Origin: Verrucomicrobiota bacterium | GTDB taxonomy: Bacteria > Verrucomicrobiota > Verrucomicrobiia > Opitutales > Cerasicoccaceae | Reading direction: 5' to 3' | Assembly: GCA_039818205.1 (NCBI GenBank) | Contig: JBCBUK010000015.1 | Location: forward strand, 1-64,000 | DNA: 64,000 bases | Translations under genes and position numbers: made by a program | Shown: one piece after another, positions 20,976 through 47,243 of the stretch | Numbering within the stretch: position 1 is the stretch's first letter | Layout: each line of letters begins with the position of its first letter | Notes under the pieces: generated by a model | The model's database searches: none | What the model was told of the DNA's origin: nothing | The model's input: only the letters and a program-made list of their open reading frames with translations

Positions 20976-21030
20976 ATTCTACCGGTTGGATTTCACTCTG
21001 AATAGCTAGACAGTCATATATCCCCGTTAT

Positions 21031-21068
21031 GGCGTCTCCATCACTTGCTGGTGGAGACGTCTTCTTTT
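21031..21068 (+). terminator. Rho-independent terminator
   Basis: GGCGTCTCCATCA-cttgc-TGGTGGAGACGTC stem followed by TTCTTTT, downstream of 17079-20975 and between convergent genes. Confidence 0.8.
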
Positions 21069-21193
21069 AACAATGATCATTTCTCTGGAACAAATGTGCG
21101 CCAGTATTGCGGATAATGTCCTGAGTCTCGACCCATGACAGCATCTGTTCTAGGAGCGCGAACCACCACTCGATTTATCGACCTTGAATACGG

Positions 21194-22099
21194 TCAACTG
21201 CGTGGTTTTATCCAATCCAATGTGGGGCCAAGCGGTACGATGCGACTTGGGTTGATGTCGTCGTGAGTGTAATAGTAGTGCCGCTTGATGTGGTCGAAGT
21301 CTACGGTTTCGGCGACCCCTGGCGAGTGATAGACACGTTCTAAAAATTGCTGTAGTGACGGAAAGTCTTTGATCTGGCGTTTGTTGCATTTGAAGTGCCC
21401 AAAGTATACCGGGTCAAAGCGGACAAGTGTGCAAAACAATCGATAGTCTGTTTCTACAATGCGGTCGCCAAAAAGGAAAGGTCCGCCCGTTGTTAGTCGG
21501 GCCTCTAGTCCTTCAAGTGTCGCGAACAGCTTTTCATAGGCTTGATTGTAGGCATTTTGCGTGGAGGCAAAGCCTGCTTCGTAAACACCGTTGTTGACGC
21601 TATCGTAAATTTCTAAGCTGAGCTCGCCCTGCTGCGTCTTTATGTCATTGGGAAAGAGGTCAACCGGGTGTTTGGCGAGAGGCTTGAACACGCCGGACCA
21701 CATCAATATGATATCGTCCTCGGAGTTGTTCACGATGCGTTTATCCTTCTTGTCCCAAAGCACGGGGACCGTGATTCTTCCAGGGAAAACGGGATTCGTT
21801 TTAAAATAGGCTTCTGAGAGAAAGTCGAATCCTTCGACATCATCGAGACCGTGTCCGTCGCCTTCCCGAAATGCCCATCCAGTCTCTTCGTCGCGAATCG
21901 GATCAACAAAGTTTACGCTGATTGCCTCGTCGAGTCCCATGAGGTTACGCGTCAGCCACGCACGGTGTGCCCAGGGACATGCTTTGCAAATGAAGAGATG
22001 GTATCGTCCGGCCTCAGGTGTTTCCACCCAATCGCGAAACTCATCTGGCTGGCGTTTGAATGAACCATCGTTGCCTTCTTCATTTGGAAATTGTGCCAT
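21194..22099 (-). CDS. yqjG: Glutathionyl-hydroquinone reductase (YqjG/ECM4-like GST)
   Basis: ACPWAHR, TVPVLWDK..IVNNS, NNGVY.AGFA, TLVRFD.VY..HFKCN, HIKRHYY, INPSRIVPLGP. Confidence 0.92.
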   Translation of the reverse strand: MAQFPNEEGNDGSFKRQPDEFRDWVETPEAGRYHLFICKACPWAHRAWLTRNLMGLDEAISVNFVDPIRDEETGWAFREGDGHGLDDVEGFDFLSEAYFKTNPVFPGRITVPVLWDKKDKRIVNNSEDDIILMWSGVFKPLAKHPVDLFPNDIKTQQGELSLEIYDSVNNGVYEAGFASTQNAYNQAYEKLFATLEGLEARLTTGGPFLFGDRIVETDYRLFCTLVRFDPVYFGHFKCNKRQIKDFPSLQQFLERVYHSPGVAETVDFDHIKRHYYYTHDDINPSRIVPLGPTLDWIKPRS

Positions 22100-22110
22100 A
22101 GCTGAGTGAT

Positions 22111-22138
22111 AATCTAGTCAGAATGATTCTGAGTGCAA
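22111..22138 (-). promoter_or_regulatory. Putative sigma70 promoter with a palindromic operator in the spacer
   Basis: Minus strand TTGCAC-16nt-TAGATT; spacer holds TCAGAAT-N-ATTCTGA (22118-22132); 11 nt upstream of the ATG. Confidence 0.5.
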
Positions 22139-22622
22139 GGTCGAGAGTTCGACGGAACGAAATACGCTAACGTGTCACTGCTGAATCTATGCCAATTGGG
22201 GTTGAGGTCGACTTAAAGTTCCTGGGCGGCAGGACGTATTGGTTGGTGTTTCAAAACGGTGCAACGAGCCGTTTCATCTGGGTGAGACTCAGAATGGCAA
22301 GCTAGGAAATAACGAACCTAGCGTGTGCTTGGTGGCGCTGAGCAAACCTTGAGTGCGCGATTCTATGCTCCTCAATTCGCAATATAAGGTTTGAAGGTCG
22401 GAGGAATGATCCGCATGATTGAAATTATTATTTTAATCCGAGCACTTGGATCCGGAGCCGTCTCAAATCAAACCTATCCCTCGCGCCCTTGATCCAAATA
22501 GTGCGGCCAGATCTTCTGTTAGTTAGAGCGAGATCTGATCCTAATTTGTTGCCCTAAAGGTGCCTCCAAGGCGTAAGCAAGTGAGCCGTTCATTTGCTGA
22601 AAATTATGCCTCGGCTTTCCCA

Positions 22623-25600: not shown

Positions 25601-27272
25601 TCATTCCTCAGCGGACATTCCGTGGATATTCAACGAGACGCAGGGAGTTGGAGTTTACCTGACTCCGGGGCAGAGCTTTCGGCTGTTTAAGGGGCCTCAG
25701 ACTTTTGGCCCATCAACGGGCGATATCGTGAGCGCCTATCTGCACCATAGCGATCAAAGCGATGGATGGTACGAATGCGTTTTACGGCTCAATGCGAACG
25801 AATCGAGCATGGTCGACTTAGCATCGAGCATGGATAGTGGTTCTCCGGAGTTCTCGATCTTGCGTAGAGATTCGAAGGCACATGTTGTGCGTAGCGAGGA
25901 ATATGAGTCGGTCGGTTATGCAATCTTTGATTCATCAAACTTGATCTTTGCGGACGGCGTATTGGCGAGTGTTGATCAACCCTGTGTTGTAATGGTGCAG
26001 GAGCACGATAGCGGCTTGGTCAATCTAACGGTATCATGCCCCGACAAGAAGATGCAGAAAACAGCAAGCAATCCGCTTGGGTGGAGCGATCCGGTTGAGT
26101 TACAGCTGGTGTTAAATGGTGCGTTTGGCTTGGAGGGTGCATTGTCTGGAAATCCGAATGTCGCGGTCGATTACGTTGGAACCAAGATGCTCTTGAGAGT
26201 GACGGTGCAAGACGGATTGCCTCAAGCGGTTAGTTTGCGACGGGTAGAATCGATTGGGGCATCGCAGGTGTTCGCATCTTGGAACTTCGACGATGAAGGA
26301 GCGAATGGAACGGATTCTGGACGATCTCAAACCAACTGGTCAGACTCAGCACCGACAACGGCTGAACCCGCGTGGATTCTTACGTCAACAGGAGCGGGAT
26401 CTGGCTCCGGAATTAGCGTGGATCCAATGTCGGGAGAGTTGATTCTGAGTGGTGTTGGCGGTGACGTTACACAGGCGATTTTGCCCTTTGGTCGAGATGC
26501 CTTGGAAGGGCGAGTTTCCGTTGAGCTCGGTGTTGACTCTGGAAACACCTGGAGTGGGGCAAAGTTCAACCTGGTTCAAGTGGATTCGCAGCGCATTGAT
26601 ACCCTGGTGGAAGTTCGGGTTCAGCGGAATGGAAGCAACACTAATAACCTGATATCGACGGCAACGGTCGGCGCTGCCATCAATGGTCAGTGGGAGGACT
26701 CCTTTAATGCGCTCGAGATTCAGTGGGATGTCGATGGTGCCGACATTGTTCTCTCGGGATTGGAAAGCGGCGACGTCACGATTGAACGAGGTGGGTTCCT
26801 GGCGCCATTGATTCCCAATGCATTGCTCATCGAGGTGGATGCGGCGGATGACCGATTGCGACGGCTAAAGTTGAGATCCCTGGACGTTGCGTTTCCCATG
26901 ATGAGTTATCTCGAGTGGGTAGGGGCCTTCGGTATTGAAGGATTCGAAGATACCTTGCTGGTCGCGGACTTTGATGGCGATGGATATGATAACCGTTCTG
27001 AGTATATCGCTATGACCGACCCGGCTTCAGGGGGGCAGTTCCCTTCCGTCCTCCAAGTTGCCTCGACCACCGTTGACGATGGATTAGAGATCTCAATTAG
27101 TTGGATTCCACTGCAAGGTCGTGTTTACGATGTCTATGGTTCGACTGATCTACGGGACGGCTTTTCACGCATCGAAGCCGGTTTGAGGTATCCAATTGAT
27201 AGGTATACGTGGAAGGTTCCCGACGCAGCTAACCATGGATTTATTCGTTTAGAAATGCGCTTGGAGGAGTAG
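22623..27272 (+). CDS. Secreted PL8-type (chondroitinase ABC-like) polysaccharide lyase with accessory domains and C-terminal module
   Basis: GTLKPDGSWFHH, FKKSYFYFGDDIVMLASNISN, ILRRDSKAHVV, VDQPCVVMV, LTVSCPD; signal peptide from ATG 22623. Confidence 0.8.
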   Translation: MKVLHQISFLLFSMCPLLGALVDEFTDTFSLGGAGGIGAYTPFGGNSSQTQTFTIRGDSPDGSFVDGSDDGFAHLHRTLLDRATVGMVRDLGVISSGDVGATVLVDAGFRHRSGMTSVWSLVLGGAALVGEGQLSVSSFSSGSIASNSDVLLSAIDPSGDSGRLGAGPLAYTIQLGDVGKRLELQFSVYDSTNSGSGEGTRDLSVDFISYQKVAAKYGNYRNSRIGLINGQTPDSLLFFPWRELLYDFDTDQPLNGVQANASAIATSASYYMTAPQSLRWRASNGSTLILDAGMSLPYEWRVTYFLSMGLFQEDSPGGNDKRAFRIELISSDGVVRQTRQMYLHKSGWNILCSELDDLRQYPIDRIRVTQVSGSGGDFYVDNAMVFASQNTRSAVATSGIEKETLWIENSSSYPTTPLTPEERDAFYTIAERVIPLPSKVSSISSSRMNEFRALHAYFKVERNGEFANGANPLYYYRGLDKLDGESDPTLQYRMNSELCDELEHIGKAWYQTQDVNQKEELAEMVTDLVRLSVTYGGIPNPWYNGRGFAEGVFYSKDLLESEGLLEKVTEQIFLQYNVDRILYNEHSWENPVAQSDRSPEFFWQATADDLNTGSKSTLLSILVAPDSPEKARDLQRLRSWLENVALAFSPNTLGTLKPDGSWFHHWGNRFDNYGWVAAWRGSCEWVWWLSHTPFGVGSEAKERMHFMADIHFEIMNKDGYVGPQDAMSYIPSSGFMNLALAGSPDGSEAIDPVMASYWLAYPNDSTYRRNADLVSSLSSSSIVPADKVDSNSTLSYDISNVHRRGDWQVYTRGASNSLYHTQYERDGFLFYNIGGLSLVKEGEATGMQQSYGSSLLLRHLSDLPSLTPGYNTSRAPGVTSIDSSYNNLRQIYYQRGSSDFVGGLSTFDGMGIFVQEFDARDNSTYSNRIARGLRFKKSYFYFGDDIVMLASNISNNGSTTAVETGLLQEPTSAGNRFLLSNGTNTGGGNVNVSHSSADIPWIFNETQGVGVYLTPGQSFRLFKGPQTFGPSTGDIVSAYLHHSDQSDGWYECVLRLNANESSMVDLASSMDSGSPEFSILRRDSKAHVVRSEEYESVGYAIFDSSNLIFADGVLASVDQPCVVMVQEHDSGLVNLTVSCPDKKMQKTASNPLGWSDPVELQLVLNGAFGLEGALSGNPNVAVDYVGTKMLLRVTVQDGLPQAVSLRRVESIGASQVFASWNFDDEGANGTDSGRSQTNWSDSAPTTAEPAWILTSTGAGSGSGISVDPMSGELILSGVGGDVTQAILPFGRDALEGRVSVELGVDSGNTWSGAKFNLVQVDSQRIDTLVEVRVQRNGSNTNNLISTATVGAAINGQWEDSFNALEIQWDVDGADIVLSGLESGDVTIERGGFLAPLIPNALLIEVDAADDRLRRLKLRSLDVAFPMMSYLEWVGAFGIEGFEDTLLVADFDGDGYDNRSEYIAMTDPASGGQFPSVLQVASTTVDDGLEISISWIPLQGRVYDVYGSTDLRDGFSRIEAGLRYPIDRYTWKVPDAANHGFIRLEMRLEE

Positions 27273-27589
27273 CCAGCGATTGATTGAATTCGATGCTTTT
27301 CCCGTTGATGTCTAAATTGTCGTTTGTGCGATCTAACGCCAGGTGGGCGCAGTATCAGACTTCCCATTAGAGCTAGAGCTGATCCAGTTTGAGCGTGGTG
27401 CTGGTGGTTTCACGTTTTGCTACGCGCAGCGGCGCTCGGTCTGGGTCTTCTACGGCGCACCGCAGGATGATGCTTTAAATACTTGGGTATTTCGAGGAAC
27501 TAGGTATTGATATCGCTCCATTTTGCTCTTCATTGATGGAGCAATTTTACGGTGCCACTTACCCGAACGAACCATCTAAGTCTAAAGTA

Positions 27590-28447
27590 ATGAAAATCTC
27601 ACTGTTTGTCATCCCGCTTCTCGCCTTGAACGCAACCCTATCGAGTTTTGCCGACCAGGCGCCTCGCCTGGAACTGGTCTGGGAGACCGAACCTATTTTC
27701 TCCTACCCGGAAAGTGTCGTCTACGACCCTGCGCGATCAGTATTGTATGTGAGCAATATCGGTGAAACTCCCAAAGATAATTCCGCCAACGGTGATGGCT
27801 TTGTGTCGATTCTCAGCTTGAGCGGAACTCCTATTGTTAAGAACTACATTCGGGGATTGAATGACCCGAAGGGTATGGACCTGGATGGGGATACGCTTTG
27901 GGTCAATGATCGGGATGCGATTGTTGAATGGGACCTTGCGGAAGATCAGTTGGAGAAGCGGCATGAGCTGGAGAACATTGTGTTCCTCAATGATATCAGT
28001 GTTGGCCCTGAAGGAGAGATTTTTTCCAATGACGCCGACGGTCATAAAGTTCTGAAGTTAGAGGGTGATCAGTGGAATGTCTTCTGGAGTGATCCCGATG
28101 AAGGGCGGCCCAACGGTATTCGCGTTGAGAAAGATCGGATCATGTTAGCGATGAACTGGTCGCACCAGCTAATTGCCATTGATAAAGGCACGATGGAAAT
28201 TTCGCTCCTTCTGGATGGAATTGGTGCTGGCGATGGCATCGAGCCAGTTGGCAATGGGGGTTACCTCATCACCGATTACCTTGGGCGAATTATTTACCTT
28301 TCGCCTGAAGGTGTCGGTAGTGTCCTCATCGATTCGAGAGAAGATAAATTAACCGCGGATCTTGAATATATTCAGGATCAAAACCTAGTCCTGATTCCAA
28401 GACATAAGAATAATTCGGTGGCGGCATATCGCCTGATCTGGGATTAG
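27590..28447 (+). CDS. Secreted SMP-30/gluconolactonase-like beta-propeller
   Basis: PESVVYD...LYVSNI, GLNDPKGM, FLNDI, PNGI, GDGIE, ADLEY; signal peptide. Confidence 0.75.
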   Translation: MKISLFVIPLLALNATLSSFADQAPRLELVWETEPIFSYPESVVYDPARSVLYVSNIGETPKDNSANGDGFVSILSLSGTPIVKNYIRGLNDPKGMDLDGDTLWVNDRDAIVEWDLAEDQLEKRHELENIVFLNDISVGPEGEIFSNDADGHKVLKLEGDQWNVFWSDPDEGRPNGIRVEKDRIMLAMNWSHQLIAIDKGTMEISLLLDGIGAGDGIEPVGNGGYLITDYLGRIIYLSPEGVGSVLIDSREDKLTADLEYIQDQNLVLIPRHKNNSVAAYRLIWD

Positions 28448-28688
28448 GTCTTTCGACCAAGTTGGAGTCTTAAGCCCTCCGGCTTTGGGGCGGGTTGCCT
28501 GCGCTCTCAACGCGTTTTGTTTGTCGATGAAGGGCGAGCGAATTGTCCTGTATTTCGAGCCGCTAATCCGGACCGCGATCATCGCAATATTTTGAACCAC
28601 GTGGGGGAGCAACAGTCAGAGTATGAGCACCATTAGATTTAGTCTCTGTGACCTGGGCGCTCTCGGATCTCGTTGAAACGAGCTGCGT

Positions 28689-29888
28689 TCAATTGTGGCT
28701 CAGCATCTTGTAGACTTCGGAACCGGCCGCTAAGAAGGCGCCGATTCCATAAACCTCAGTCTTGTCAGGAAACGAGTCTCCGGGTGCAGCTCCGACGGGT
28801 TGGACATGCCCAAGCATGCCTTCGGGCGTTACGCATTCTTCAAGGGCGGACCATGCTTTGAGTATGATTGGCTCGTAGGTGGCTCGATCGAGGATCCCGT
28901 TGTTCACGCCCCACGCCAACCCATATACGAAGAATGACGTCCCGCTGGTCTCCTTTATCGGATAGCCTTGTTCGCCGCCAAGTAAACCCATTGACCACGT
29001 GCCATCTGCTCTTTGCAATGATACAAGACTGGCTGCCATTTGTTTGAATACTTCGACATAGAACGGGCGAAATTCCCAGTCGTCGGGCATATCGGGGATC
29101 ATCAGGGCTAGGCCAGCGAACACCCAGCCATTGCCGCGGGACCAAAATAGCTTCCGTCCGTTCTGTTCACGCTTATTGAAAAAGCTAGTATCCCGCCAGA
29201 ATAGTTTCTCTTCGTCGTCCCAGAGCAGGTCGTAGGTTGCCCTGTACTCCTGATGCATGAAATCGAGGTATTTTTGCTCTCCCGTTATTTTGGCTAGCCG
29301 CGTCCATACCGGTGGCGCCATAAACAGTGCATCACACCAACCCCACCGATCAAGCCAATCGGTATTGGGGTTCTTATAGCCGCTGTATTTCATGGATCCC
29401 ATTTTGGGCTCGGCGAGGATTGCGTCGAAACGCTTGCGGGTCGGCTCAATCATTTCTGGGGCACCGATGTCCTCGTAGAGATTCAAATAGAACTGACCAA
29501 CAGTATGGTCGTCGGCGTGATACTTGCGCTTGTGTAGTTTCCAATGATTCCGTTTGCCAATCATCATCAGCCAATCAGCGTACTTTGGGTCATCGCCCGC
29601 CGTACTCCATTCATACATGCCGACATAGAGAGCGCCTTTGTGCCATCCGAGTTCGGGCCAACGCCATGGGACCCAGCCATTCTCTTCGTTCTGTTTTTTC
29701 TGGTGAGTACTCAACGCACGGTATTCTAACTCCTTGTCGAAATTCGCTATCTGCCAATCAGCAACACGATTGGTGAGCGCCTTTACTGATTCAGCGCTCG
29801 GGCGATTGGATTCTGATGTTGCTGAGACATTCATTGTCAGAACGACGAGAACGTTCAGTAGTGTTAGTATTCGAGTCGAGTGCCTCAT
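28689..29888 (-). CDS. GH105 (GH88/105 group) unsaturated glycuronyl hydrolase
   Basis: HADDHTVGQ, WGWCDALFMAPP, FWSRGNGW, ETSGTSFFVYG, YGIGAFLAAG. Confidence 0.9.
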   Translation of the reverse strand: MRHSTRILTLLNVLVVLTMNVSATSESNRPSAESVKALTNRVADWQIANFDKELEYRALSTHQKKQNEENGWVPWRWPELGWHKGALYVGMYEWSTAGDDPKYADWLMMIGKRNHWKLHKRKYHADDHTVGQFYLNLYEDIGAPEMIEPTRKRFDAILAEPKMGSMKYSGYKNPNTDWLDRWGWCDALFMAPPVWTRLAKITGEQKYLDFMHQEYRATYDLLWDDEEKLFWRDTSFFNKREQNGRKLFWSRGNGWVFAGLALMIPDMPDDWEFRPFYVEVFKQMAASLVSLQRADGTWSMGLLGGEQGYPIKETSGTSFFVYGLAWGVNNGILDRATYEPIILKAWSALEECVTPEGMLGHVQPVGAAPGDSFPDKTEVYGIGAFLAAGSEVYKMLSHN

Positions 29889-30615
29889 GGTCTAAGCTGG
29901 GAGCGGTTGGAGTTTTCTGTCTGCCTTGTGGCGTGGATTGTCGCGCACAGAGCTGTTAACTGCGTTCCTGCATCACGCGGTTAGCATGGATTCTAGAACG
30001 CTAAATCGGAATTTTGAGGGTATTGATGGGTCTTTGATTGATAAGACCTGAGCTGAATAATTTATGAATATGACATTCCTGCTGTCGAAACTCCATGCCA
30101 AGATGCTCACTCTAACTTACCATTTTGCGACACTTTGAGAACGGGCCGATTGGAATGGGGGTTGGTTCTGTCTAAGTGTATCGGATTGGTTTGGGAAGGC
30201 TGCGTTTTGCGTTGTTACTTACGTCCAATAGACGGGATATGCTATGAAACGCGTTCATTCCGGCTGGATATACCATTAGCTTTTCCCTCTTCCGGAAATT
30301 CTACGGGAAACACTTTTCTATCCCTTTATGCGCCATTTTGCCTCTAGTGCGGGCGGCAGATTGTGTTCTTGAACGGGGCGTTTCGCGAATCCTGTTCCGT
30401 TCTAGAAAGGGATCATGCGGTATATATGCCTTGCCAAAATACTGAATTATATCTAATGTTTTCCATTAGTATCATTACATCGGCGACCTCATTTGATAGC
30501 CCACGATGGCGCTTGTTTTATATCTACTTCATTAAGCACGACCAATCTCAAACGACGCATTTCATTACCTGCCTTTCGATAACGGGCAGACGTAGTAAGG
30601 CGATCGTCGGTAATA

Positions 30616-33600
30616 TTGAAAACTGTCATGAATGTCTTTTTTCGCATTTTTAGCGCGCCCAGATTGGGACTTTCTTTAGTTTTTAGCGTACTGGGATTTG
30701 CTGCTCCTTCTTTGGCGCACATTTGTGGGCCCAGCGAAATTTTCCTGATTCCAGGCCAAACATTTGTGTATTCAATCGTCGCAGATGTTTCGGAAAAGGA
30801 GAAGTCGTCTTACAAGCTTGCAATGATTGACAACCCAGCAATCGTCTCGGTTTCACCGGAGCAGCAGTTTTCTCGGTTTGTACGAGGTGTATTTAAAATT
30901 AAGGCGCTTGAGGTTGGCCAGACGAATGTCGCGATGACTTGGACGTATGATCCGAACAATGCCGGAGCAACGTGTATTGTCTCAGTGAATGTTGTTGCTA
31001 CTGAGGAAGAAGCAGCATTGGGAAGGGCGGTTTCAACGCTTTTTTCGTTTTCTGGTTCCGCCGCGGACCCAATCAGTACCTACACTGGCGACTTCTACAT
31101 GCATTCCGCGCCTGACCTCGCTCTTGGTGGTCCGATGCCGCTGTTCTTTCAGCGCTACTATAATTCTGGCCTTAGCCGGCAAGGATTCGTTACCCAACAA
31201 ATGGGACGCAACTGGACACATAATTACGACCTCTACCTTTACCCTTTTGGAGATGAGGTCTTCATCGTTCACCGGGATGGCAAAGTCCTCCAATTTCAGT
31301 TGAATGGCGAAAGTTGGGATCTGGTTTCGCCGCTAAGCCAGCCCTATCAATTGCTGGAAGACCAGGGTGAATACGTGCTCATGGATCCCACGGACCAACG
31401 TCGCTATTTCTTTAATTCGGACGGAAATCTCACGGCAATCAAAGATCGCAACGACAACACCCACACGATGACCGTTGCCAATGAGAATCTGATCGAGATT
31501 TCCGATGGTTTGGGGCGACGATTGAGCCTGACCTATGGCGGCCTCAACAAGGTTGCTTCTGTGTCGGACGGCACCCGGACAGTCACCTTCACAAATTTCT
31601 TTTTGGATTTGGAGGAGGTTCGCGACGCCCGAGGTCACACCACCGACTACCATTATCCTAGCTCTGACGGAAGGCTTGGCTCGATCACTCGCCCAGAGGG
31701 CAACACCCCGCTGAGCCGAACCTTTACGGGTGACCAGGCGACACGTGAAACTGATGCCGACAACAATCAGACGTTAATTGACTATAACGGCCTCCAAACC
31801 GAAATTATTGATCCATTGTCGGACATACGGAAGCACATTCACAGCGATAACGGTGAGTTGCTGCAATCGATTGATCCACTCAACCGTGCGACAACGCTGG
31901 GATACAACGCAGATACCCAGCGCAACTCGATTACTGACCGCGAAGGCAATGAGACCTCCTGGTCGATTCATGAGGCTTCGGGGCGTATCGAGAGCTACAC
32001 CGACGCCGAAGGCCAAACGACCGAGTATACATATACCGCTCAACAGCAACACGGCTTTACCTTCTACGACATCACTGAGATCCACTACTCCGATAATACG
32101 ATGACCACCATTACTGTGGATGCGAGTGGCAATCCGTTGACGGTCACTAATCCGGATAACGAGACGTGGGCCTTCACCTACAATAGTCGCGGCCAGGTGA
32201 TTACCGAAACCAACCCGACGAATGGCGTCACGACCTACGGTTATGATGCCAATGGCGATCTGGAAACTATCAGAAATCATTTCAACGACCTGACGTCTTA
32301 TGACTACGACGGCTTTTCACGGGTCACTCGTGTTGACTATCCAGGCGGTGACCATCGTGAGATGACCTACGACGACAACGACAACCTTCTCACGGTTACG
32401 GATGAGAGAAATCAGACTTGGACTTACACCTACGATGACAACAACAACCTCGTCACTGCAACCGACCCTCGAGGTGAGACCTTGACCAATGTTTATGACG
32501 ACATGGATCGCATTTCGCGTATCGTAGACCGCGAGGCCAATCAAATCGATTTCACTTATGATGAGCGCGGGCGCATGAAGACCCTGGTGAATGGTGCGGG
32601 TGAAACGACAACCTATGGCTACGATGTCAATGACCGCCAGGTTACTACCGCTGACAATGGAAATCGCACGGTTACCACCGAACGTAACTCAGAGGGAGAA
32701 GTCACCTCGGTAACCGACCCATTGAACAATGTCTGGTCAATCGAAACCGATGCCGTCGGCCGTGTGGTAAAGCAAACGAATCCACGGGGTGGAGAAAGCA
32801 CCTTTGAGTATGATGGCCGTGGTCGCTTGTTGAGATCCTACAACGAAGTCGGAACGTCGGTTGAGCGTACCTATGATTCAGTTGGACGTATCTCGTCTAT
32901 GACGGTGGATACTGGTTCTCAGGTAACCTATGGCCGGAATGCGTTGGGTATCATCAATGAAATTACAGACCCGAATCAAGGTGTTTGGACACGCGGATTT
33001 GATCCTTCTGGGCGTATGACCAGCGAAACGGATCCTCTTGGTCGGTCTGCCAATTTTACCTACGATAACCGAAGCAGAATAGAGGAAATGGCAACGGAAC
33101 TAGGCAATCTGACTTTCTCTTACGATGCCGCCGGGAACCTGACCAGCCGCGCTTACTCTGATGGTAAGTTAATCACATACGGCTATGATGACAATAGCCG
33201 GTTGGTTTCCGCAACCAACTTGGCATTGGGCTACGACGGCGAACGGAACATCATCGATTGCAACGGAATGACCATGACCTACGATGGCGCCAGCCGGTTG
33301 GAGACGATTCAATACGCACCGGGAAAGATCGTTACCTATACCTATGATACCCGGGGGTTGATTTCTACCGTTACCGACTGGGTGTCGGGAACCACTGAGT
33401 TGGACTACGATGATGCCGGTAATCTCGTCTCGATTACTCGGCCTAACCAACTTGAAACACGACTTGATTATGATGACGTCGGCGAGCTTTCTAGCAGCGA
33501 GGTCGTTGATCTGGGTGAAAATGGTGCACCGACTATTTCTTCGATACTGCTAACGCGCGATTTGACTGGCCGCATTACAGGTGTTGCTCGTGATTTGCCG

Positions 33601-35082
33601 TCCTCGGGTTCTCCGGCTAACGAAGAGTCGCTTTATACTCCGGACGCAGGGCATCAACTGGCTGGGGGTAGCTACGCTTACGATGCAATGGGTCGTCGAA
33701 TAGCCGACTCGAATCGAAACTATACCTGGGACTTGGCATCGATGCTAACCGCTTATACTGCGTCTGGTGGGCTGGTGAATTCCACCTATGATGCCTATGG
33801 AATACGGACGCAGCGCACCCAAGGCAGCACAACCCGTGGCTATGTGGTGAATTATGCCCTTAGCTTTCCCTCGATCTGTACCATGACTGATGGTTCGTCA
33901 GATCTTACCTACTACGTCTACCTCCCAAGCGGCACGCTGCTCTACTCGATTGCCGCGTCGAATAACTCCCGCCGCTTTTATCACTTTGATGAAGTTGGTA
34001 ATACCATCTATCTTTCAGATGACTCCGGCGCGATAACGGATACCTACAAACTGACTCCTTTTGGCCGACTAATTTCTCAGACGGGAGCAACCGAAAACCC
34101 CTTCATCTACGGTGGTCTATTCGGTGTGGTTTCCGAAGGAGCGGGGCTGTATTACATGAGGGCGCGTTACTACGATGCCGAATCGGCCCGCTTCATCTCG
34201 AAGGATCCCGTTAAGGGACTCATGCCTAGTAGCGTGAACCCTTACCAGTTCGCGTTTAATAACCCCAACCTATACGCCGATCCAAGCGGTCGAGAGGTCA
34301 CCTTGGGAGGCTACGGAAGATTCGGGCTCGCCTACAACGAGTCGCCTAGTGTTCGCGGTAGTGAGCAGGAGCATAGAATCGAACAGCGTTTTCGATTAAC
34401 CATCACCGGAACGACTGAGTCCGATGGTGGGGTGCAATTCGAAGGTAGAATTCGCTTGCGAGAGGATAATGACCAGCGCCACGATAATTCGGGATTTGGT
34501 GCTGCAGGATTTGCTGTTAGTTCCGGCGGATTCCGGCTGGATGTCGGCAACGTAGCAGACGTTCTTGATCAGGGAGATACGGTTTACTACTACGGTTACG
34601 ATGTCGGACTCACGAGCTTCTCCGACTACAACTCAAATTACGATGGATTTGGTTCGATAGGCGGCTTTGGAACCGCTGCCCGGAGTGACCCGACTCCCAG
34701 TAAGGAAAAATATTTCTATTTGGCGGGTTTGCAGGGCTTATCAGGATTGGGCGCGGGCTCGGATGTCGGTGGCCCAGTGGGAGGGTTTGGCAGTGGTTCC
34801 CCCGATGTAAGCGCTATTAAGTTACGCTACACGGCAGGCGACTTCACGATCGGCGTTGGTGGATCGCCAACCCAAATCGATCCCGGAACCTATACCGGAG
34901 CAGTTCCGACGGGGGGAAGCTTTTGGGGTTCCGACTCTGGACCTACCTTTGGTGTTGGTTACGAATCTAACTTTTCCGATTTCAGTCACGACCTAGGTGG
35001 CGGTATCCTCATTCGAGGAAGCATCGGCCAAAGTCCGAATAGTGCCACTATCTCGGATCTGGGATTGAGTTTTAGGCCTTAA
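30616..35082 (+). CDS. Sec-exported Rhs/YD-repeat protein with porin-like C-terminal cargo
   Basis: Signal peptide; ADPISTYTGD (DUF6531-like start); dozens of YD repeats; Rhs core GLYYMRARYYD...NPYQFAFNNPNLYADPSG; 263-aa C-terminal region. Confidence 0.93.
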   Translation: MKTVMNVFFRIFSAPRLGLSLVFSVLGFAAPSLAHICGPSEIFLIPGQTFVYSIVADVSEKEKSSYKLAMIDNPAIVSVSPEQQFSRFVRGVFKIKALEVGQTNVAMTWTYDPNNAGATCIVSVNVVATEEEAALGRAVSTLFSFSGSAADPISTYTGDFYMHSAPDLALGGPMPLFFQRYYNSGLSRQGFVTQQMGRNWTHNYDLYLYPFGDEVFIVHRDGKVLQFQLNGESWDLVSPLSQPYQLLEDQGEYVLMDPTDQRRYFFNSDGNLTAIKDRNDNTHTMTVANENLIEISDGLGRRLSLTYGGLNKVASVSDGTRTVTFTNFFLDLEEVRDARGHTTDYHYPSSDGRLGSITRPEGNTPLSRTFTGDQATRETDADNNQTLIDYNGLQTEIIDPLSDIRKHIHSDNGELLQSIDPLNRATTLGYNADTQRNSITDREGNETSWSIHEASGRIESYTDAEGQTTEYTYTAQQQHGFTFYDITEIHYSDNTMTTITVDASGNPLTVTNPDNETWAFTYNSRGQVITETNPTNGVTTYGYDANGDLETIRNHFNDLTSYDYDGFSRVTRVDYPGGDHREMTYDDNDNLLTVTDERNQTWTYTYDDNNNLVTATDPRGETLTNVYDDMDRISRIVDREANQIDFTYDERGRMKTLVNGAGETTTYGYDVNDRQVTTADNGNRTVTTERNSEGEVTSVTDPLNNVWSIETDAVGRVVKQTNPRGGESTFEYDGRGRLLRSYNEVGTSVERTYDSVGRISSMTVDTGSQVTYGRNALGIINEITDPNQGVWTRGFDPSGRMTSETDPLGRSANFTYDNRSRIEEMATELGNLTFSYDAAGNLTSRAYSDGKLITYGYDDNSRLVSATNLALGYDGERNIIDCNGMTMTYDGASRLETIQYAPGKIVTYTYDTRGLISTVTDWVSGTTELDYDDAGNLVSITRPNQLETRLDYDDVGELSSSEVVDLGENGAPTISSILLTRDLTGRITGVARDLPSSGSPANEESLYTPDAGHQLAGGSYAYDAMGRRIADSNRNYTWDLASMLTAYTASGGLVNSTYDAYGIRTQRTQGSTTRGYVVNYALSFPSICTMTDGSSDLTYYVYLPSGTLLYSIAASNNSRRFYHFDEVGNTIYLSDDSGAITDTYKLTPFGRLISQTGATENPFIYGGLFGVVSEGAGLYYMRARYYDAESARFISKDPVKGLMPSSVNPYQFAFNNPNLYADPSGREVTLGGYGRFGLAYNESPSVRGSEQEHRIEQRFRLTITGTTESDGGVQFEGRIRLREDNDQRHDNSGFGAAGFAVSSGGFRLDVGNVADVLDQGDTVYYYGYDVGLTSFSDYNSNYDGFGSIGGFGTAARSDPTPSKEKYFYLAGLQGLSGLGAGSDVGGPVGGFGSGSPDVSAIKLRYTAGDFTIGVGGSPTQIDPGTYTGAVPTGGSFWGSDSGPTFGVGYESNFSDFSHDLGGGILIRGSIGQSPNSATISDLGLSFRP
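34291..35082 (+). other. Rhs C-terminal domain resembling Rhodobacteraceae-type outer-membrane porin
   Basis: EVTLGGYGRFGLAYNE..IEQRFRLTITGTTESDGGVQFEGRIRL..GFRLDVGNV..IKLRYTAGDFTIGVG..GGGILIRGSIGQ..TISDLGLSFRP; amphipathic beta-strands. Confidence 0.8.
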
Positions 35083-35100
35083 GCAATTCTTAAAGAGCAG

Positions 35101-35673
35101 ATGAAAATGAGAAATTTTATTTTTGGCTTTTGGTTCGTGTGCATCTTGCCGGTTGCCGTTTTCGCTCAATCGGAGCAGGTTGTCTATACATACGACAATA
35201 GCGGTCGGTTGACCGGCGCGTATACCGATAACGGCACAAGCGTAACCTACGTCTATGATGCCGCCGGAAATCTATTACGACGCAAGACGACGGTGATTGT
35301 CGACAGCGATGGCGACTTCATGGATGATACCTTTGAGATGTCCAATTTTGGTAGCCTCTCCCGTGATGGCACGGCCGATTTCGATTTCGACGGACAATCT
35401 GACCTCGCGGAATTCTATGCGGGCACCGACCCAGATGATTCGACATCCGTTTTGAACGTTACCTCGTCCAGTGATGACGTTTCTGGTTTCACCATCACTT
35501 GGGCAGCGGTCAGCGGAAAGCGCTACCGGGTTCAATACAAGGATCATCTCAATTCGCCCGCATGGTTTGACTTGGCTGGTGATGTGACCGCCTCAGGTGC
35601 CAGTGCATCGAAGGTCGATACGCGCGCCCTGACGGATGGAAGGCGTTTCTATCGTATCATAGTGATGCAATGA
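35101..35673 (+). CDS. Small secreted YD-repeat protein with C-terminal module
   Basis: Signal peptide; YTYDNSGRLT...YVYDAAGNLL; DSDGDFMDD.FE...GTDP...YRVQYKDHL...W...RRFYRIIV; starts 18 nt after the Rhs stop. Confidence 0.85.
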   Translation: MKMRNFIFGFWFVCILPVAVFAQSEQVVYTYDNSGRLTGAYTDNGTSVTYVYDAAGNLLRRKTTVIVDSDGDFMDDTFEMSNFGSLSRDGTADFDFDGQSDLAEFYAGTDPDDSTSVLNVTSSSDDVSGFTITWAAVSGKRYRVQYKDHLNSPAWFDLAGDVTASGASASKVDTRALTDGRRFYRIIVMQ

Positions 35674-35886
35674 TGGGTGAGGTGAGGATGTTCAGTTAGC
35701 GCGGGTTCTGCTCGGTTTCCGACGATAGCGGTTGGATTGTTACGCCGCGCTCGGATAGGGAGGCGAATTCGTGGAATATGGGGCTTCGGCCTTAAGTTTG
35801 ACAGGGGTTTGCCGCTGTAGTATGAATACTCGATTAATCTTCTGCCTAAACTTATCGACCGCTTTAATCTATTTTTCCGATTTGGT

Positions 35887-38800
35887 ATGGCCGTGCTCTT
35901 TGGGGCGGCGGTCTTTGTCGGTGGCAGGGCGCACGCGCAACTCATTTATACGGAGTCCTTTCGGTTCGAAAGCGCCCCTGGATGGGAGTTTCGACAAGAT
36001 AGTAATGGGACTGATCCTCCGGCCAGATTGACGGCCAATGCGGTTCCCAACGCAGCAGATCCAGAGTCGGGCACCCCGCAGATCGATGTGAATGGCAACG
36101 GGTGGTTACGCCTGGCGACCACGACCGGAAATCAGGCCAACGCAGTTGCGCTTGATACGGCTATCCCAGCGACTGACAACACGATACGAATTTCGTTTGA
36201 TTACTCCTTTTGGAAACCTGACACGGCCCCCGCAGATGGTATCACCGTGTTTTTATGGGATGCGGGTCAGGCATTCGATCCTGGCGCCTTCGGGGGATCG
36301 CTGGGTTATGCGAACCGGACAGGCGTCGATGGCCTTTCCGGGGCATACGTGGGTGTTGGGCTCGACGTATATGGAAACTTTTCGAACCCGACAGAAGACA
36401 GAAACGGTGGCGTGGGGTTTCGGCCCAACGAGGTAGCGATCCGCGGGGCCGGTAGCGGCCAAACGGGATATGACTATATTGAGGGCACTGGAGATGGCAC
36501 GAATCCATCGCTGACCTCCGTCTTCGGTTCGGGTTTCAGCATGGATTTTATTAATTCCCCAAGTCGGCCCGATCAGGATGCCGATGATTATCGCGGTTTC
36601 CAGCTAGAGTTGGACGAGAACGATGTGCTGACGATTTGGTTGCAGGACGGGTTTAGCGGCACGCTGACCCAGGTTCTGCAGACGACTCTAACGGATCCAC
36701 GACCGGACCAGTTGCGAGTCGGTTTTGCTGGTTCAACGGGTGGTTCGGTCGAAGTATACGAGATTAGGAACCTGGAGATTGAAACAACCGGAGGCACGAA
36801 CGCTTTCTACTGGGACAACGAGGATGGCGACCAGCAATGGGGCACCGGAACGAACTGGGATCAGGATGTTGTTCCAACCGATCACAGCTTCGTTGTCTTC
36901 TCGGATCTGTTTCCGGACACGATGACCGACCAGTTGGTTGAAATTAACGGCGGGGACAAAACAATAAGCACCGCGACCTTCACCGGGACATCGAGCTACA
37001 CGCTGACTCCAGAAAGCGCACAAACGCTGATTTTTGATACGGACGGCAATGGCAAGAGCTACCTTAACGTTTTGAATAGCCCAAACGGCAACGCCGACCA
37101 CACGATCAATGCGGATATCCAAGCGAGTGGGAATGATCTGGATATTCAGAACTTGGTGGATCAAACGCTGACGCTTAACGGAGATATTGACGGGGCTGGC
37201 AACGATTTGGGTTTTGAGTCCGCTGGTTTGATTGTGGCCAATGGTGCGATTTCCGACAGTTCGGGGACGACCAATGTGACGGTTACCGGGAATGGCGAAA
37301 CGCAGTTCGCTGGCAGTAACACCTATTCTGGAACCACTACGGTGGGCAGTGCCGGAGGGGACTCGACCACGCTTACGATCAGCAACGCGATTGCGCTTGG
37401 AACGACCGGAGCGGCGACCACCGTTTTGGATGGATCGACGCTCGCCTTGGAAAACAACATTACCTTTGCGGCAGAAACGGTTAATATCACCGGTTCCGGG
37501 GTCGACGGTGTGGGTGCACTCTTCAACAGCTCCGGCACGAACACTTGGGATGGAAACATCAACTTAGCAGGTGATGCCACAATCGGAGCGGCTTCGGGAA
37601 CCTCTTTGACACTAGATACGGGTACGTTGGATGGCGTTGGCAACGAGATCACCTTTTTGCCGGAATCAGGAGCAACGATTACGGTGGATCAGACGATAAC
37701 CGATTCATCTGGAACCACGAACGTAGTCTTCGATGGTGCCGGAATGACCGAGATCGGCTTTTTCCAGAACAACACCTACGAAGGCACAACGACCATCCGA
37801 TCCGGAACCGTTTTGTCCGGAAGTAGTGTGGGCGCTTTTGGTGAAGAAGCATTCGGCGCGTCGAGCTCGAATATTGAACTTGGCGATGGTGGAACGGATG
37901 CCACCGACAACATCACGCTTAGTTTCGATACGAGTTTCTTCAACCACATTGTTGATCGGCAGATTGACATCAACAACTCAGGTGCCACGACGACACTTGG
38001 CGTTGTTGGTAACAACACCCTCAATTATAATGCGGCGGTGAACCTCGCCAAAGATCTCACCGTGGACGCAGTGGATATCAGTGGGGCGATCGGAGCAGAG
38101 ATCATATTCGACAATGATGGCGCGTCGGGTGAACTGACAGGCACGGGTGATATTACGAAAACGGGTAACGGAATTATGACCTTACGCGGTGGTCACTCGA
38201 GGACGGGTGACCTGAACATCAACGGCGGGACCGTGAACGTCGAAGGTAATGGAGCCAGTGCACTTGACAATAGTGGCCGGGTCACGCTGGCCGATGTCGC
38301 CGGTGCCCAGCTGAACATCATTGATAGCGAGGTCATTGGTTCATTGGCAGGCGGTGGTGCGAGTGGAGGCAATGTTGCGATTGACGTGGGACAAACGTTA
38401 ACCGCCGGATTCGATGGTACCGACTCAACGTTTTCGGGAACCGTTTCTGGCTTTGGCAACCTCACCAAAGAGGGCGCCGGCAACTTGACCTTCGATGGAA
38501 CCAATACATTCACCGGTACGCTTTTGCTGGATGAAGGGACTGTAACTGCCGGTGCGGATAACACTTTTAATGATTCCATGGCGGTTGATTTCTCTGGCGG
38601 TACGCTCGCTATCGATGGGGTCACGGATACCGTCGGAGGCTTCAATCTTTCGTCCGACTCGACACTGGATTTTCTGGGAGCTGCTGGTGGAACCGTCACC
38701 TTTGGCGACTTGGACCGCACTGCGGGAGATCTTACGGTGGATAACTGGATTGGCAGTCTTAGTGGAGGTGGTGATACGCAGTTCCGATTTACGGGAACGG

Positions 38801-41220
38801 ACTCTGGTTTTACTTCTGGCGCGTCTGCTGATCTGAATGAAATCTCTTTTACCGGTTGGGGCACCGGAGCTGATCTTGTCGACTTTGGGACCTACCAGGA
38901 GATCGTTCCATCGCTCAATGAGTTTTTCATTTGGGATGGCTCCACCGGCAACTCCACGTGGACGACGGTTGCGAACTGGCAGGATGCAGATGGTAACGCG
39001 GTTTCTCGCGACCCGGACCTTGCTGGCGATCGAGTATTATTTAGCGACCTCGATCCGAGCCTGAATGGCGACACCATTCAATTGGATACCGATATTACGC
39101 TTGGAGTCTTGGTGATCGACAACGACGATGCCTTTACCATCTCGTCGGACAATAATGGCGATGAGTTTTTCTTCGACAATAACGGCAGCGATGCATTCCT
39201 GACGGTCCAGGGATCGAGTAGCCCAACGATTGATCGCGAGATCGAAATGCAAGATGATCTGGTGATTACCAACAACTCATCGGGCACCTTGACGATTACC
39301 GATGCGACCAGCGGAGGCTTCGATATTAACACCAGTAATTCTGGTAGCAACGAGCTGACCTTTCGCGGCACTGGGTTCACCTTGATCGAGAGCGATATTA
39401 TTGGCAGCGGTTCGGTTGTTAAAACCGGCAGTGGAACGTTGCGACTGACCGATAACAGCACCGTCACTGGTGGATTCACGATCGAGGAAGGCACCGTTCA
39501 AGCGGCGAATAATCAGGCATTCGGAACCGGCACTATCGACATCGATGGCGGAACCATTGAAGCCTTCGGCAGCAATCGCAACATTAGTGAGGCCTACAAC
39601 ATCAACAATGATTTCACCTTCGGAAATGCAGATGGCAGCGATATACTATTTTCTGGTAACGGTGTTCTGGCCGCTGGCGAACAGACCATCACCGTTGAAA
39701 ATGGAATCACCGCGACCTTAGGTGCGGCCGGCAATCTTACGGGTACGGGTTCGATTGTAAAGGAGGGCGATGGCACGCTCGCTTTCGGCGGTAACGACAA
39801 CAGCTTCTCGGGTGACGTAACGATCAATGACGGAACGGCGGAGGTGTCCTCGGGTGGCACTTCGATCACGCTTGCGGGATCTCAAGGTAGCCAGAACTTC
39901 ATGGGAACGGGCGACGTCACCGTAAACTCAGGCGGAACGCTTTCATTATCTAACACCGTTGATCTGACAATCGCGAGTGGAGGGACGGTGACGAATACGG
40001 GCGGAACGATCACCGCCAATATTGGAAACGGGAACAACGATGACATCGTTTTCGCGGGTAACTTCAATCAAACCGGTGGAAATTCAACGTTTACCGCTTC
40101 GGACAATATCAGACAGACCGGAACAAGTCAGATTTTGGTCTCTGGCGGAGACTTGGCGCTTAACCTGCAAGATGATTTTTCGACCGGCGATGGTGGGTCG
40201 ACCTTCAGTACAACGAATGGAGCGACCTCGTCTGTAACCCTGAATACTGGGGTCGGTTCGAGCCAGTTTACATTGTCTGAGAATGACTTCTTAACGGTCG
40301 ACGGGAGTGGATCGACTCTTACGGTGACTACTGAGGATAACGGTAGTGTGAATCTTGATGGAACGATTCAGCTGTCAAACTCAGGGCAAATGATCGTTGC
40401 GCAGGGGCCTACAACTTTCGGTGCGAACTCGACTTTCGATGGTAGCGATGCATTGACCGCCGGAACACTGGAGGTTCGCGATGATTTAACGTTCACGAGC
40501 GGCATGGATATTGCCAATGCGCCAAATATCACATTGAACATCGCAGGTGGTGATTCTTCGGTGATCACTGCGGCAGCTGCTTCGACAAATATAGAAAACC
40601 TGGGCGTGATAACCAAAACTGGAGATGGTGATACGACGATCGGAAGCAACCTGAACAACTTGCAGGGTAGCAAGATTCTCATCAATGGTGGAACGTTGTT
40701 CAACAGCAGCGACAATCAGATCGAGAACAATACGGCTTTGGAATTTGCGGATAATGGCAGTGGAGTCACGACTCCAACTTGGAATCTCGATGATCGTAGC
40801 GAGGTACTTGGATCGCTCACACTGAGCAACAATTCGACTGTTGAGTTGGACTTTGGAAGTGATGCTGGGGATGGCGGCGTCGTCCAGTTTGCCGATAGCT
40901 CTGGCGCACTTTGGAGTGGTTCGGGTACGCTCAGCATTGATAACTGGAATGGATCCACATCGGGTGGTGGTTTAGATCAACTATTTGCTGGTTCGAGCAG
41001 TAGCGGACTAACCAGTAGCCAACTTTCGCGCATCAAGTTCTTCAACCCAGCGGGATTAACGCCAGGAGTTTATGACGCCAGAATTCTTTCAACAGGCGAG
41101 ATTGTTCCGGTTCAAGCAGTGCCGGAACCTGGTACCTACCTCGCGGGCGCCGGTTTAGTTGGTTTGCTTGTCGTGCTAGAGATTCGACGACGGCAGAGGC
41201 AGCAGTCAATCAGTTCATAG
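35887..41220 (+). CDS. PEP-CTERM surface adhesin with L-type lectin-like domain and autotransporter-passenger beta-strand repeats
   Basis: GWLRL..., ADGITVFL, GGSLGY, VGLDVYGNFSN lectin-like domain; repeated K.G.G.L.L...NT..G...I..GT; VPEPGTY-TM-RRRQR; no barrel domain. Confidence 0.88.
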   Translation: MAVLFGAAVFVGGRAHAQLIYTESFRFESAPGWEFRQDSNGTDPPARLTANAVPNAADPESGTPQIDVNGNGWLRLATTTGNQANAVALDTAIPATDNTIRISFDYSFWKPDTAPADGITVFLWDAGQAFDPGAFGGSLGYANRTGVDGLSGAYVGVGLDVYGNFSNPTEDRNGGVGFRPNEVAIRGAGSGQTGYDYIEGTGDGTNPSLTSVFGSGFSMDFINSPSRPDQDADDYRGFQLELDENDVLTIWLQDGFSGTLTQVLQTTLTDPRPDQLRVGFAGSTGGSVEVYEIRNLEIETTGGTNAFYWDNEDGDQQWGTGTNWDQDVVPTDHSFVVFSDLFPDTMTDQLVEINGGDKTISTATFTGTSSYTLTPESAQTLIFDTDGNGKSYLNVLNSPNGNADHTINADIQASGNDLDIQNLVDQTLTLNGDIDGAGNDLGFESAGLIVANGAISDSSGTTNVTVTGNGETQFAGSNTYSGTTTVGSAGGDSTTLTISNAIALGTTGAATTVLDGSTLALENNITFAAETVNITGSGVDGVGALFNSSGTNTWDGNINLAGDATIGAASGTSLTLDTGTLDGVGNEITFLPESGATITVDQTITDSSGTTNVVFDGAGMTEIGFFQNNTYEGTTTIRSGTVLSGSSVGAFGEEAFGASSSNIELGDGGTDATDNITLSFDTSFFNHIVDRQIDINNSGATTTLGVVGNNTLNYNAAVNLAKDLTVDAVDISGAIGAEIIFDNDGASGELTGTGDITKTGNGIMTLRGGHSRTGDLNINGGTVNVEGNGASALDNSGRVTLADVAGAQLNIIDSEVIGSLAGGGASGGNVAIDVGQTLTAGFDGTDSTFSGTVSGFGNLTKEGAGNLTFDGTNTFTGTLLLDEGTVTAGADNTFNDSMAVDFSGGTLAIDGVTDTVGGFNLSSDSTLDFLGAAGGTVTFGDLDRTAGDLTVDNWIGSLSGGGDTQFRFTGTDSGFTSGASADLNEISFTGWGTGADLVDFGTYQEIVPSLNEFFIWDGSTGNSTWTTVANWQDADGNAVSRDPDLAGDRVLFSDLDPSLNGDTIQLDTDITLGVLVIDNDDAFTISSDNNGDEFFFDNNGSDAFLTVQGSSSPTIDREIEMQDDLVITNNSSGTLTITDATSGGFDINTSNSGSNELTFRGTGFTLIESDIIGSGSVVKTGSGTLRLTDNSTVTGGFTIEEGTVQAANNQAFGTGTIDIDGGTIEAFGSNRNISEAYNINNDFTFGNADGSDILFSGNGVLAAGEQTITVENGITATLGAAGNLTGTGSIVKEGDGTLAFGGNDNSFSGDVTINDGTAEVSSGGTSITLAGSQGSQNFMGTGDVTVNSGGTLSLSNTVDLTIASGGTVTNTGGTITANIGNGNNDDIVFAGNFNQTGGNSTFTASDNIRQTGTSQILVSGGDLALNLQDDFSTGDGGSTFSTTNGATSSVTLNTGVGSSQFTLSENDFLTVDGSGSTLTVTTEDNGSVNLDGTIQLSNSGQMIVAQGPTTFGANSTFDGSDALTAGTLEVRDDLTFTSGMDIANAPNITLNIAGGDSSVITAAAASTNIENLGVITKTGDGDTTIGSNLNNLQGSKILINGGTLFNSSDNQIENNTALEFADNGSGVTTPTWNLDDRSEVLGSLTLSNNSTVELDFGSDAGDGGVVQFADSSGALWSGSGTLSIDNWNGSTSGGGLDQLFAGSSSSGLTSSQLSRIKFFNPAGLTPGVYDARILSTGEIVPVQAVPEPGTYLAGAGLVGLLVVLEIRRRQRQQSISS

Positions 41221-47144: not shown

Positions 47145-47243
47145 AGTTGTTTTGGCTCCCAGCTGGTGGAGATTTACACAGACCTTCGATGACACCGCTG
47201 CCTTCTCGAGAAACGGTGTGTCGATGCCCAGTTGGTTCGGAAA

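Follow-up and report, generated by a model that had tools for sequence, protein, structure and literature searches.

A shortened roseobacter-type porin as the putative cargo of a secreted Rhs protein in a Verrucomicrobiota bacterium

Most of the cargoes described for Rhs proteins are enzymes or form pores from helices, and come paired with immunity proteins. Rhs polymorphic toxins, as described in excerpts of a study of Tse15 (PMC11461821) and of a survey (PMC3482391), combine a cocoon of YD repeats, a core with two aspartates, a DPxG motif and a variable cargo of about 200-260 aa; according to the Tse15 excerpts, a 195-aa Gly/Ser-rich cargo lies unfolded in its cage. Here we describe an Rhs protein (ORF 30616-35082, +) encoded in a stretch of 64,000 nucleotides (the window; positions 1 to 64,000 of contig JBCBUK010000015.1, assembly GCA_039818205.1) from a Verrucomicrobiota bacterium of the Opitutales. 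It possesses the YD-repeat shell, the Rhs core with its two catalytic aspartates and DPxG, and the conserved body with a variable C-terminal cargo that characterise Rhs polymorphic toxins. Its last 263 aa (34291-35082), in frame at the end of the ORF, appear to have been taken from a porin, an envelope protein foreign to this lineage.

A sequence-only reading of the window had interpreted the end of this ORF as a porin with an internal deletion and an altered beta-signal, and all the motifs it quoted were found in frame at the cargo end. The cargo matched the Pfam family Porin_4 (E = 1.7e-9; 38.4 bits against a cut-off of 27), and its residues 1-127 matched the R. blastica porin 1PRN from the first residue onwards (E = 4.5e-13); an NCBIfam search gave no match in the cargo. 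A total of 198 natural porins matched, the best with 43% identity over 99%; among the best 120 of these 198 matches, on which our counts of natural porin termini also rest, the nearest free-standing relatives were porins from Tateyamaria, Epibacterium, Tritonibacter and Paracoccaceae. Judged by these comparisons, the cargo is a roseobacter-type porin. Autocleavage at DPSG is predicted from the motif, by analogy with the DPxG(L/W) of PMC11461821, and from the two aspartates, whose spacing of 25 is the commonest of the family (116 of 174 parsed cores). If the cut falls after DPSG-R, the released chain would begin precisely where mature roseobacter-type porins do, with the Glu that signal peptidase leaves. 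The features of the locus are compiled in Table 1.

Table 1. Features of the Rhs gene, its porin-like cargo and the adjoining partner gene (window coordinates)
Feature	Position	Strand	Remarks
Rhs/YD-repeat protein	30616..35082	+	1488 aa when read from TTG; ATG 30628 is the likely start
Sec-type signal peptide with A-x-A-like site	30628..30717	+	Assigned by eye, no predictor used; cleavage context same in relative L009
DUF6531 domain	31066..31296	+	E = 3.7e-16
RHS/YD repeats (cocoon)	31300..34050	+	14 Pfam stretches; bounds approximate
Rhs core ending in DPSG	34054..34290	+	TIGR03696, E = 2e-14; autoprotease Asp codons at 34204-34206 and 34279-34281, both present
Porin strands 1-5	34294..34554	+	Starts at Glu, the mature N-terminus of natural porins; modelled trimer interface
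L3 constriction loop	34555..34671	+	Score inside natural range
First, decayed copy of L3-end/strand-6 segment	34672..34755	+	
Second copy of L3 end, intact strand 6, degenerate strand 7	34756..34866	+	
Gly/Pro-rich linker replacing strands 8-14	34867..34986	+	First part common to the P0123 cargo
HDLGGG turn and weakened strands 15-16	34987..35073	+	
Two additional residues (RP) after Phe, then stop	35074..35082	+	
Partner gene	35101..35673	+	Signal peptide, YD hairpin, TSP3-like repeat, C-terminal domain

The strands were numbered in this analysis on the natural porin P0003, and ungapped strand profiles, built from the matches to this cargo and hence favouring it in its N-half, were compared with the natural 5-95% range and with shuffled sequences. 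Strands 1, 2, 4, 5 and 6 and loop L3 scored inside the natural range, strand 3 fell below it (22 vs 36-49) yet stayed above the shuffles, and strands 7-14 did not exceed the 99th percentile of the shuffles. Taken singly, strands 15 and 16 were marginal (11.4 vs 11.8 and 6.0 vs 3.4, respectively), but jointly they formed one HMM domain (E = 7e-7). In strands 1-5 the charged, hydrophobic and Gly positions were all retained at natural rates; 13 of 15 lumen-facing charged residues were kept, and the L3 loop and basic eyelet residues of Porin_4 are present. Two features of that family, the 16 transmembrane strands and the C-terminal aromatic beta-signal, are lacking. Between strand 6 and the HxLGGG turn there are 56 aa (93 from the first copy), compared with 114-180 in 110 natural porins; the barrel is at least 58-80 residues short, and 51% of the middle consists of G/S/P/T. 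The deletion is thus borne out, although the 10-11 strands counted in the sequence-only reading come down to only about six well kept and 8-10 in all. The GGFG that it had seen twice marks an internal duplication of about 40 aa, in which HMM positions 132-151 match twice; no DNA repeat marking it was found. The beta-signal is indeed altered, as the cargo ends in FRP while 115 of the 120 natural matches end in F. A MAFFT placement of the duplicated segment on strands 6-11 was dropped after the HMM matches and strand profiles, and an autotransporter-like C-terminal translocator barrel was rejected, the barrel being incomplete and its position hypervariable.

AlphaFold run on the single cargo sequence was uninformative (pLDDT 31). 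When driven by a 100-row alignment of full porins, it produced a model of 15 strand elements that could be aligned with 2PRN over 253 of its 262 residues (rmsd 3.2, Z 21), with pLDDT values of 76-95 in strands 1-5, 80-88 in residues 231-262 and 41-54 in the Gly/Pro-rich middle; the model is confident in strands 1-5 and the last three strands, not in residues 141-230. Such a near-complete barrel speaks against a deletion, but we regard it as forced by the alignment, because MAFFT had placed the duplicate and the linker on the missing strands. The same model would suit a cargo that is itself membrane-damaging, as a self-assembling pore: the contiguous block of 8-10 kept strands, in which 15-16 adjoin 1-6, would oligomerise, or draw in the Gly-rich middle, and so insert a leaky barrel into the target membrane. 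Also in keeping with such a pore are the conservation of strands 1-5 on both faces and of L3, and the F or W that ends 6 of the 11 porin cargoes described below. We nevertheless consider such a pore unlikely, since every missing strand scores at chance, the middle is rich in G/S/P/T and modelled with low confidence, and four cargoes keep just three strands.

Codon usage and residue conservation indicate that the window cargo is under protein-level purifying selection and is not a case of lone decay. The preferred-codon index of natural porin genes ranged from 0.52 to 1.0 (median 0.95; n = 35, from Pseudomonadota genomes), and that of the N-half of the cargo was 0.45 (24/53). Over 136 columns this half shares 64% identity with the natural porin P0003, and 38 of 43 near-invariant columns are retained in it. 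When neutral drift with an open frame was simulated under 16 settings, none of them yielded codon loss together with this conservation in more than 5 of 2100 runs. For the deleted cargoes of L064 and L065, dN/dS was 0.39, 0.40 and 0.22 by segment and 0.31 for the bodies, values that come from one pair with 43-93 codons per segment, the L065 body carrying a frameshift. With related deleted cargoes and purifying selection at hand, the deletion is neither unique nor mere decay, and we hold it very probable that the cargo is porin-like and selected as such.

A plainer cause of the shortening, which the sequence-only reading had overlooked, is a ceiling on cargo length near 260-300 aa. Cargoes with an intact DxxG and at least 60 aa had a median length of 209 aa, a 95th percentile of 262 and a maximum of 301 (n = 222, after removal of four duplicate or mis-parsed rows; some may be contig-truncated), and mature porins measure 279-343 aa (n = 105). 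A whole porin would therefore rarely fit, and the deletion may partly reflect capsule capacity. Since about 40 residues of the window cargo are spent on a duplicate, there was apparently no pressure for a full barrel.

The fusion itself is spanned by one Logan contig, which covers 30000-36500 without a difference and stems from a run, labelled marine, that is the probable source of this DNA, and so is not independent; runs X2 and X3 do not cover the region, and no RNA data set containing it was listed. An assembly chimera, in which the fusion would be an artefact, could draw on the fact that the exact protein was found in one contig only. It deserves almost no credence, as the junction is seamless, in frame and crossed by a single contig, the GC3 of the cargo (0.51, vs 0.565 for the Rhs body) is host-like, and nine independent fusions of like kind exist, one with the same linker. 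The junction DNA pattern occurred at 2 loci in genome contigs and was absent from metagenome contigs; searches of viral contigs and of plasmids gave no match. A search for "longer" homologues returned this protein only among 8000 scored candidates, but it missed other fusions and is no evidence of uniqueness. With our own porin HMM, used in place of a Porin_4 family search that had missed even this cargo, no second porin of this family was detected in the genome. Likewise, no porin match was obtained in 300 genomes of the order with the cargo as query, nor in 400 genomes of the class, a sample overlapping the former, with the first strands of a related cargo.

Based on the N-terminal 500 aa, 296 relatives were retrieved, the best 120 of which were listed, and a search with core plus cargo added 150 rows. 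Among 255 parsed cores the porin HMM (E < 0.01) identified nine porin cargoes (the window cargo, P0123, P0202, P0213, P0224, P0225, P0242, P0243 and L007); L065 is a tenth and P0167 a weak eleventh. Of 119 relatives selected solely by their N-terminal 500 aa, irrespective of cargo, 5 carried a porin. In a tree of 103 columns with 49 natural porins, nine cargoes fell into three natural porin clades; no bootstrap tree of 200 united them and a single clade was rejected (AU p = 1.8e-10), on few columns and with a bootstrap that had yet to settle. When 119 Rhs bodies were placed in a tree, porin cargoes sat on at least three Rhs clades that are about 35% identical to each other. Taken together, these trees indicate that Rhs porin cargoes arose repeatedly and independently. 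Their structures vary: (i) P0123, P0202, P0225/L064 and L065 keep the first and last strands and lack roughly 60-80 middle residues, so that the deletion sought in homologous Rhs C-termini does recur, (ii) in P0224 and L007, porin strands run on into LamB's last strands, and (iii) the signal peptide is left out of every porin cargo seen. The linkers of the window and P0123 cargoes are 52% identical over 33 aa (E = 1e-7), and because of this common linker the two deletions are probably one event; Atlas matches of the P0123 cargo to porin clusters (0.87-0.90) are a lead only. We also observed that part of loop L3 is present twice in the L064 and L065 cargoes, a parallel to the window duplication, and that L065 (210-7631) is a tandem of Rhs, partner and Rhs, the second Rhs being frameshifted near 6141-6273.

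An aromatic end (F or W) closes 6 of 11 porin cargoes and is missing from 5 of 11 (ten plus the weak P0167); the excess of such ends (5/10 vs 15/221) was not used as a test, the relatives not being independent. The beta-signal is not the conserved core of these cargoes, and jamming of BAM through it, one of the proposals of the sequence-only reading, is not supported as put forward, given the missing aromatic ends and the C-terminal strands being the most decayed part of the window cargo. It could be argued that the Rhs genes act as a recombination sink, in which foreign gene fragments join in frame, are cut down to what the capsule can take, persist only for generic properties and are then replaced, so that the porin likeness has no specific target. 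The patchwork make-up of the cargoes, the length ceiling, the fast divergence of the N-terminal cargo halves of the close relatives L066 and L068, the decayed C-half of the window cargo and the frameshifted Rhs body of L065 all point that way. Yet silent sites are scrambled while residues are conserved, dN/dS lies at 0.2-0.4, the signal peptide is consistently excluded and one porin family has been chosen repeatedly; we judge this alternative improbable.

We tentatively favour, as a possibility that we place somewhat below even chances, a porin-mimic effector that would act as a poison subunit, or as a burden on the assembly pathway, in alphaproteobacterial neighbours. In this scheme, a Sec-exported Rhs cocoon would hold the porin mimic as autocleaved cargo, the partner would help to export or anchor the cocoon, and the cargo would travel unfolded. 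Inside a neighbouring alphaproteobacterium it would pair with the target's porin monomers through its intact trimer face or, alternatively, load the target's outer-membrane-protein assembly pathway with a substrate from which no closed barrel can form. Having no target porin of its own, the producer could do without immunity. A heterotrimer model of two P0003 chains and one cargo scored 0.66, compared with 0.00 for the best of 3 controls; the calibration mark, which 116 of 157 solved pairs attained but only 2 of 215 mismatched ones, applies only roughly here. At least 76% of contacts were common to the runs, with a pLDDT of 43-44 for the partner, and all confident contacts of the cargo lie in kept parts (residues 1-85, 235-238 and 260-262). 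Since porin trimers have already been solved, this pass probably reflects likeness to them and not binding. The location of the contacts, together with the lethality on expression of assembly-defective OmpF/OmpC and of PhoE without its last Phe, as reported in excerpts of PMC2724633, favours a poison subunit or an assembly-pathway burden. The dominant-negative mimic of the sequence-only reading thus survives in its anatomy, the kept parts holding every confident modelled contact, and its mechanism is no firmer than the scheme just given.

Several points weigh against this proposal. As to delivery, the 99.97% complete genome has no match to PF05943 (TssC) or PF04717 (VgrG), and the window Rhs starts with a signal peptide, unlike T6SS (type VI secretion system) effectors. 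Vesicles have been suggested as carriers of Akkermansia Rhs proteins, without direct proof, in the accessible text of PMC11923206. The lumen-facing charges and L3 have been retained no less than the interface, and would be superfluous for a pure interface poison. Shortening is expected from capsule size alone, and the kept strands are the best conserved and most easily recognised part of the porin family. P0242, P0243, P0213 and L007 keep only strands 1-3, followed by unrelated pieces, and P0262 resembles a decayed porin start. The codon comparison was made with a set that does not include DNA of the closest porin clade, and one of its 35 natural genes stood at 0.52. Finally, immunity is lacking family-wide, including alongside helical cargoes, and its absence therefore says little about the target of this cargo.

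In fact, family-wide missing immunity would fit a cargo directed at eukaryotes, whether grazers or hosts, in which a beta-barrel-like chain would be imported into mitochondria or trigger porin-sensing responses; bacterial porins such as PorB do reach mitochondria, according to the excerpts of PMC2724633. The same excerpts report that other bacterial outer-membrane proteins are harmless in yeast; moreover, the C-terminal strand is degraded in the window copy and three roseobacter porin clades would be left unexplained, which makes such a target quite remote.

A Pfam scan of the cargo regions of 100 proteins (30 of them hand-picked), in which most cargoes had no match, recognised TonB plug (P0147 and P0151), secretin (P0157 and P0310), DUF1559 (P0278 and P0305), LamB, and weak FG-GAP and amidase pieces, as well as Hcp in the cargo regions of P0220, P0236 and P0241, whose cores are degenerate. 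These three proteins have no evident DPxG, carry NG-rich repeats and end in a nearly whole Hcp; the secretin cargoes of P0157 and P0310 resemble, by eye, a first strand joined to the last strands, what lay between having been lost or substituted. Matches to KaiA_N and DUF2520 in two helical cargoes (E about 0.005) were treated as chance, and no toxin family was recognised, by accession, among the precomputed domains of 119 relatives. The cargoes are patchworks, combining porin with LamB, with a helical tail or with a sorting tail. Between L066 and L068 (body dS 0.27) the cargo diverges steeply at its N-terminal side, the C-terminal end being 97-100% identical.

Porins, LamB and TonB receptors are classic receptors for phages and bacteriocins. 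As the recognisable cargo pieces of the family derive from the envelope or the cell surface (Porin_4, LamB, TonB plug, secretin, Hcp and DUF1559), and no immunity gene is present, the cargo might instead work outside cells, as a decoy, as bait or as a recognition tag to which phages, bacteriocins, predators or neighbours bind, and would then not be a poison within cells. What is kept, though, are membrane strands and an internal loop, the outer loops beyond L3 being lost, and neither the producer nor the 700 sampled relatives (overlapping samples) have such a porin to protect; the phage-receptor decoy suggested by the sequence-only reading is, on both counts, not supported as put forward, and decoys in general seem to us improbable. 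More speculatively still than the poison-subunit proposal, and with considerable doubt, the whole Rhs family could consist of immunity-free "poison-subunit" effectors, with assembly-competent ends of porins, LamB, TonB receptors, secretins, Hcp and pilin-like DUF1559 captured, trimmed to capsule size, swapped to track targets and delivered to sabotage the neighbours' assembly, and with the YD-hairpin partner coupling the capsule to the host's surface-export system.

No cognate immunity gene was found immediately 3' of the window Rhs, the next gene being the partner (Table 1), whose C-terminal domain is one that ends many secreted enzymes and other proteins. A signal-peptide YD-hairpin partner with a variable tail lies directly downstream of Rhs in 10 of 13 loci, whatever the cargo; as the partner does not vary with the cargo, it is not a cognate immunity protein. 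None lies directly downstream in L011, L064 and L065, and in L065 it sits upstream, between two Rhs genes. Its C-terminal part changes by lineage (L010:5495-6049, a T9SS sorting domain; L008:5490-7370; L007:8747-10012). This distribution suggests a general adaptor for Rhs export outside T6SS.

Directly after the partner gene, the window encodes a 1777-aa PEP-CTERM protein with passenger-associated transport repeats (35887-41220); this neighbour, like the Atlas neighbours of the partner gene, is suggestive of Verrucomicrobiota. The window also contains a polysaccharide-degradation cluster (17022-29888; PA14/CBM6/BNR protein, family 8 lyase, GH88 hydrolase) and an 1844-aa DUF3686/AAA ATPase gene (41661-49292, -), before which lies a gene of 682 aa without Pfam match. 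Elsewhere in the genome, two further large secreted Rhs genes (C2:121366-128467 and C16:64687-73142) encode hydrophobic helical cargoes with a common C-terminal tail, and each is followed by a partner of the same kind. A 3411-aa Rhs (C9:3299-14175) carries, by eye, what we take to be a Hint domain and an HNH-like tip; the small gene next to it could encode immunity, which would make it a conventional system for contrast.

Set against the described systems, the window Rhs departs from Rhs polymorphic toxins in its signal peptide, in the T6SS not having been found, in a YD/sorting partner that stands in place of immunity, and in a cargo that copies a foreign envelope protein where those carry an enzyme toxin. 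In Tse15, L/W follows DPxG in the excerpts of PMC11461821, whereas R follows DPSG here. The 16-stranded trimeric porins of roseobacters and Rhodobacter (Porin_4; 1PRN, 2POR) share with the cargo the mature N-terminus, strands 1-6, the basic ladder, the L3 acids and the modelled trimer face; unlike them, the cargo lacks a signal peptide of its own, 58-80 or more barrel residues, the terminal Phe and porin codon bias, contains a duplication and occurs in a lineage without this porin. Darobactin and LlpA bacteriocins harm rivals through outer-membrane-protein assembly, acting on BamA from outside by means of a short beta-signal mimic or a lectin. The window cargo differs from both in conserving the N-terminal half of a porin and in a beta-signal that appears dispensable. 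Assembly-defective OmpF/OmpC, and PhoE without its last Phe, are likewise incomplete or badly signalled barrels, toxic in the periplasm as laboratory mutants in the excerpts of PMC2724633; these were engineered and made by the affected cell, whereas what is proposed here is a counterpart that is natural, recurrent and packaged and is carried by a different lineage. The Rhs proteins of Akkermansia extracellular vesicles (PMC11923206) are also verrucomicrobial and proposed to serve competition, with vesicles as a possible route; in the accessible text of that source, porin-like cargo does not appear and activity is likewise not demonstrated.

Literature searches returned no description of a porin or envelope-mimic Rhs cargo, although supplements, including those of PMC3482391, may list such architectures; porin mentions in the accessible text of that survey concern two-partner secretion. 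That Rhs proteins have repeatedly, and under selection, taken up a porin from another lineage, and sister capsules other envelope proteins, points to antagonism or signalling by mimicry. Should the cargo poison porin or barrel assembly, it would amount to a naturally occurring inhibitor that acts on outer-membrane biogenesis in particular taxa and could directly probe porin trimer assembly, while the partner, with its interchangeable sorting domains (of T9SS type in L010), would offer a handle on the exit of non-T6SS Rhs proteins. Overall, the window Rhs would work like an Rhs polymorphic effector minus the immunity gene, and its cargo is best described as porin-derived minus the 16 strands and the beta-signal.

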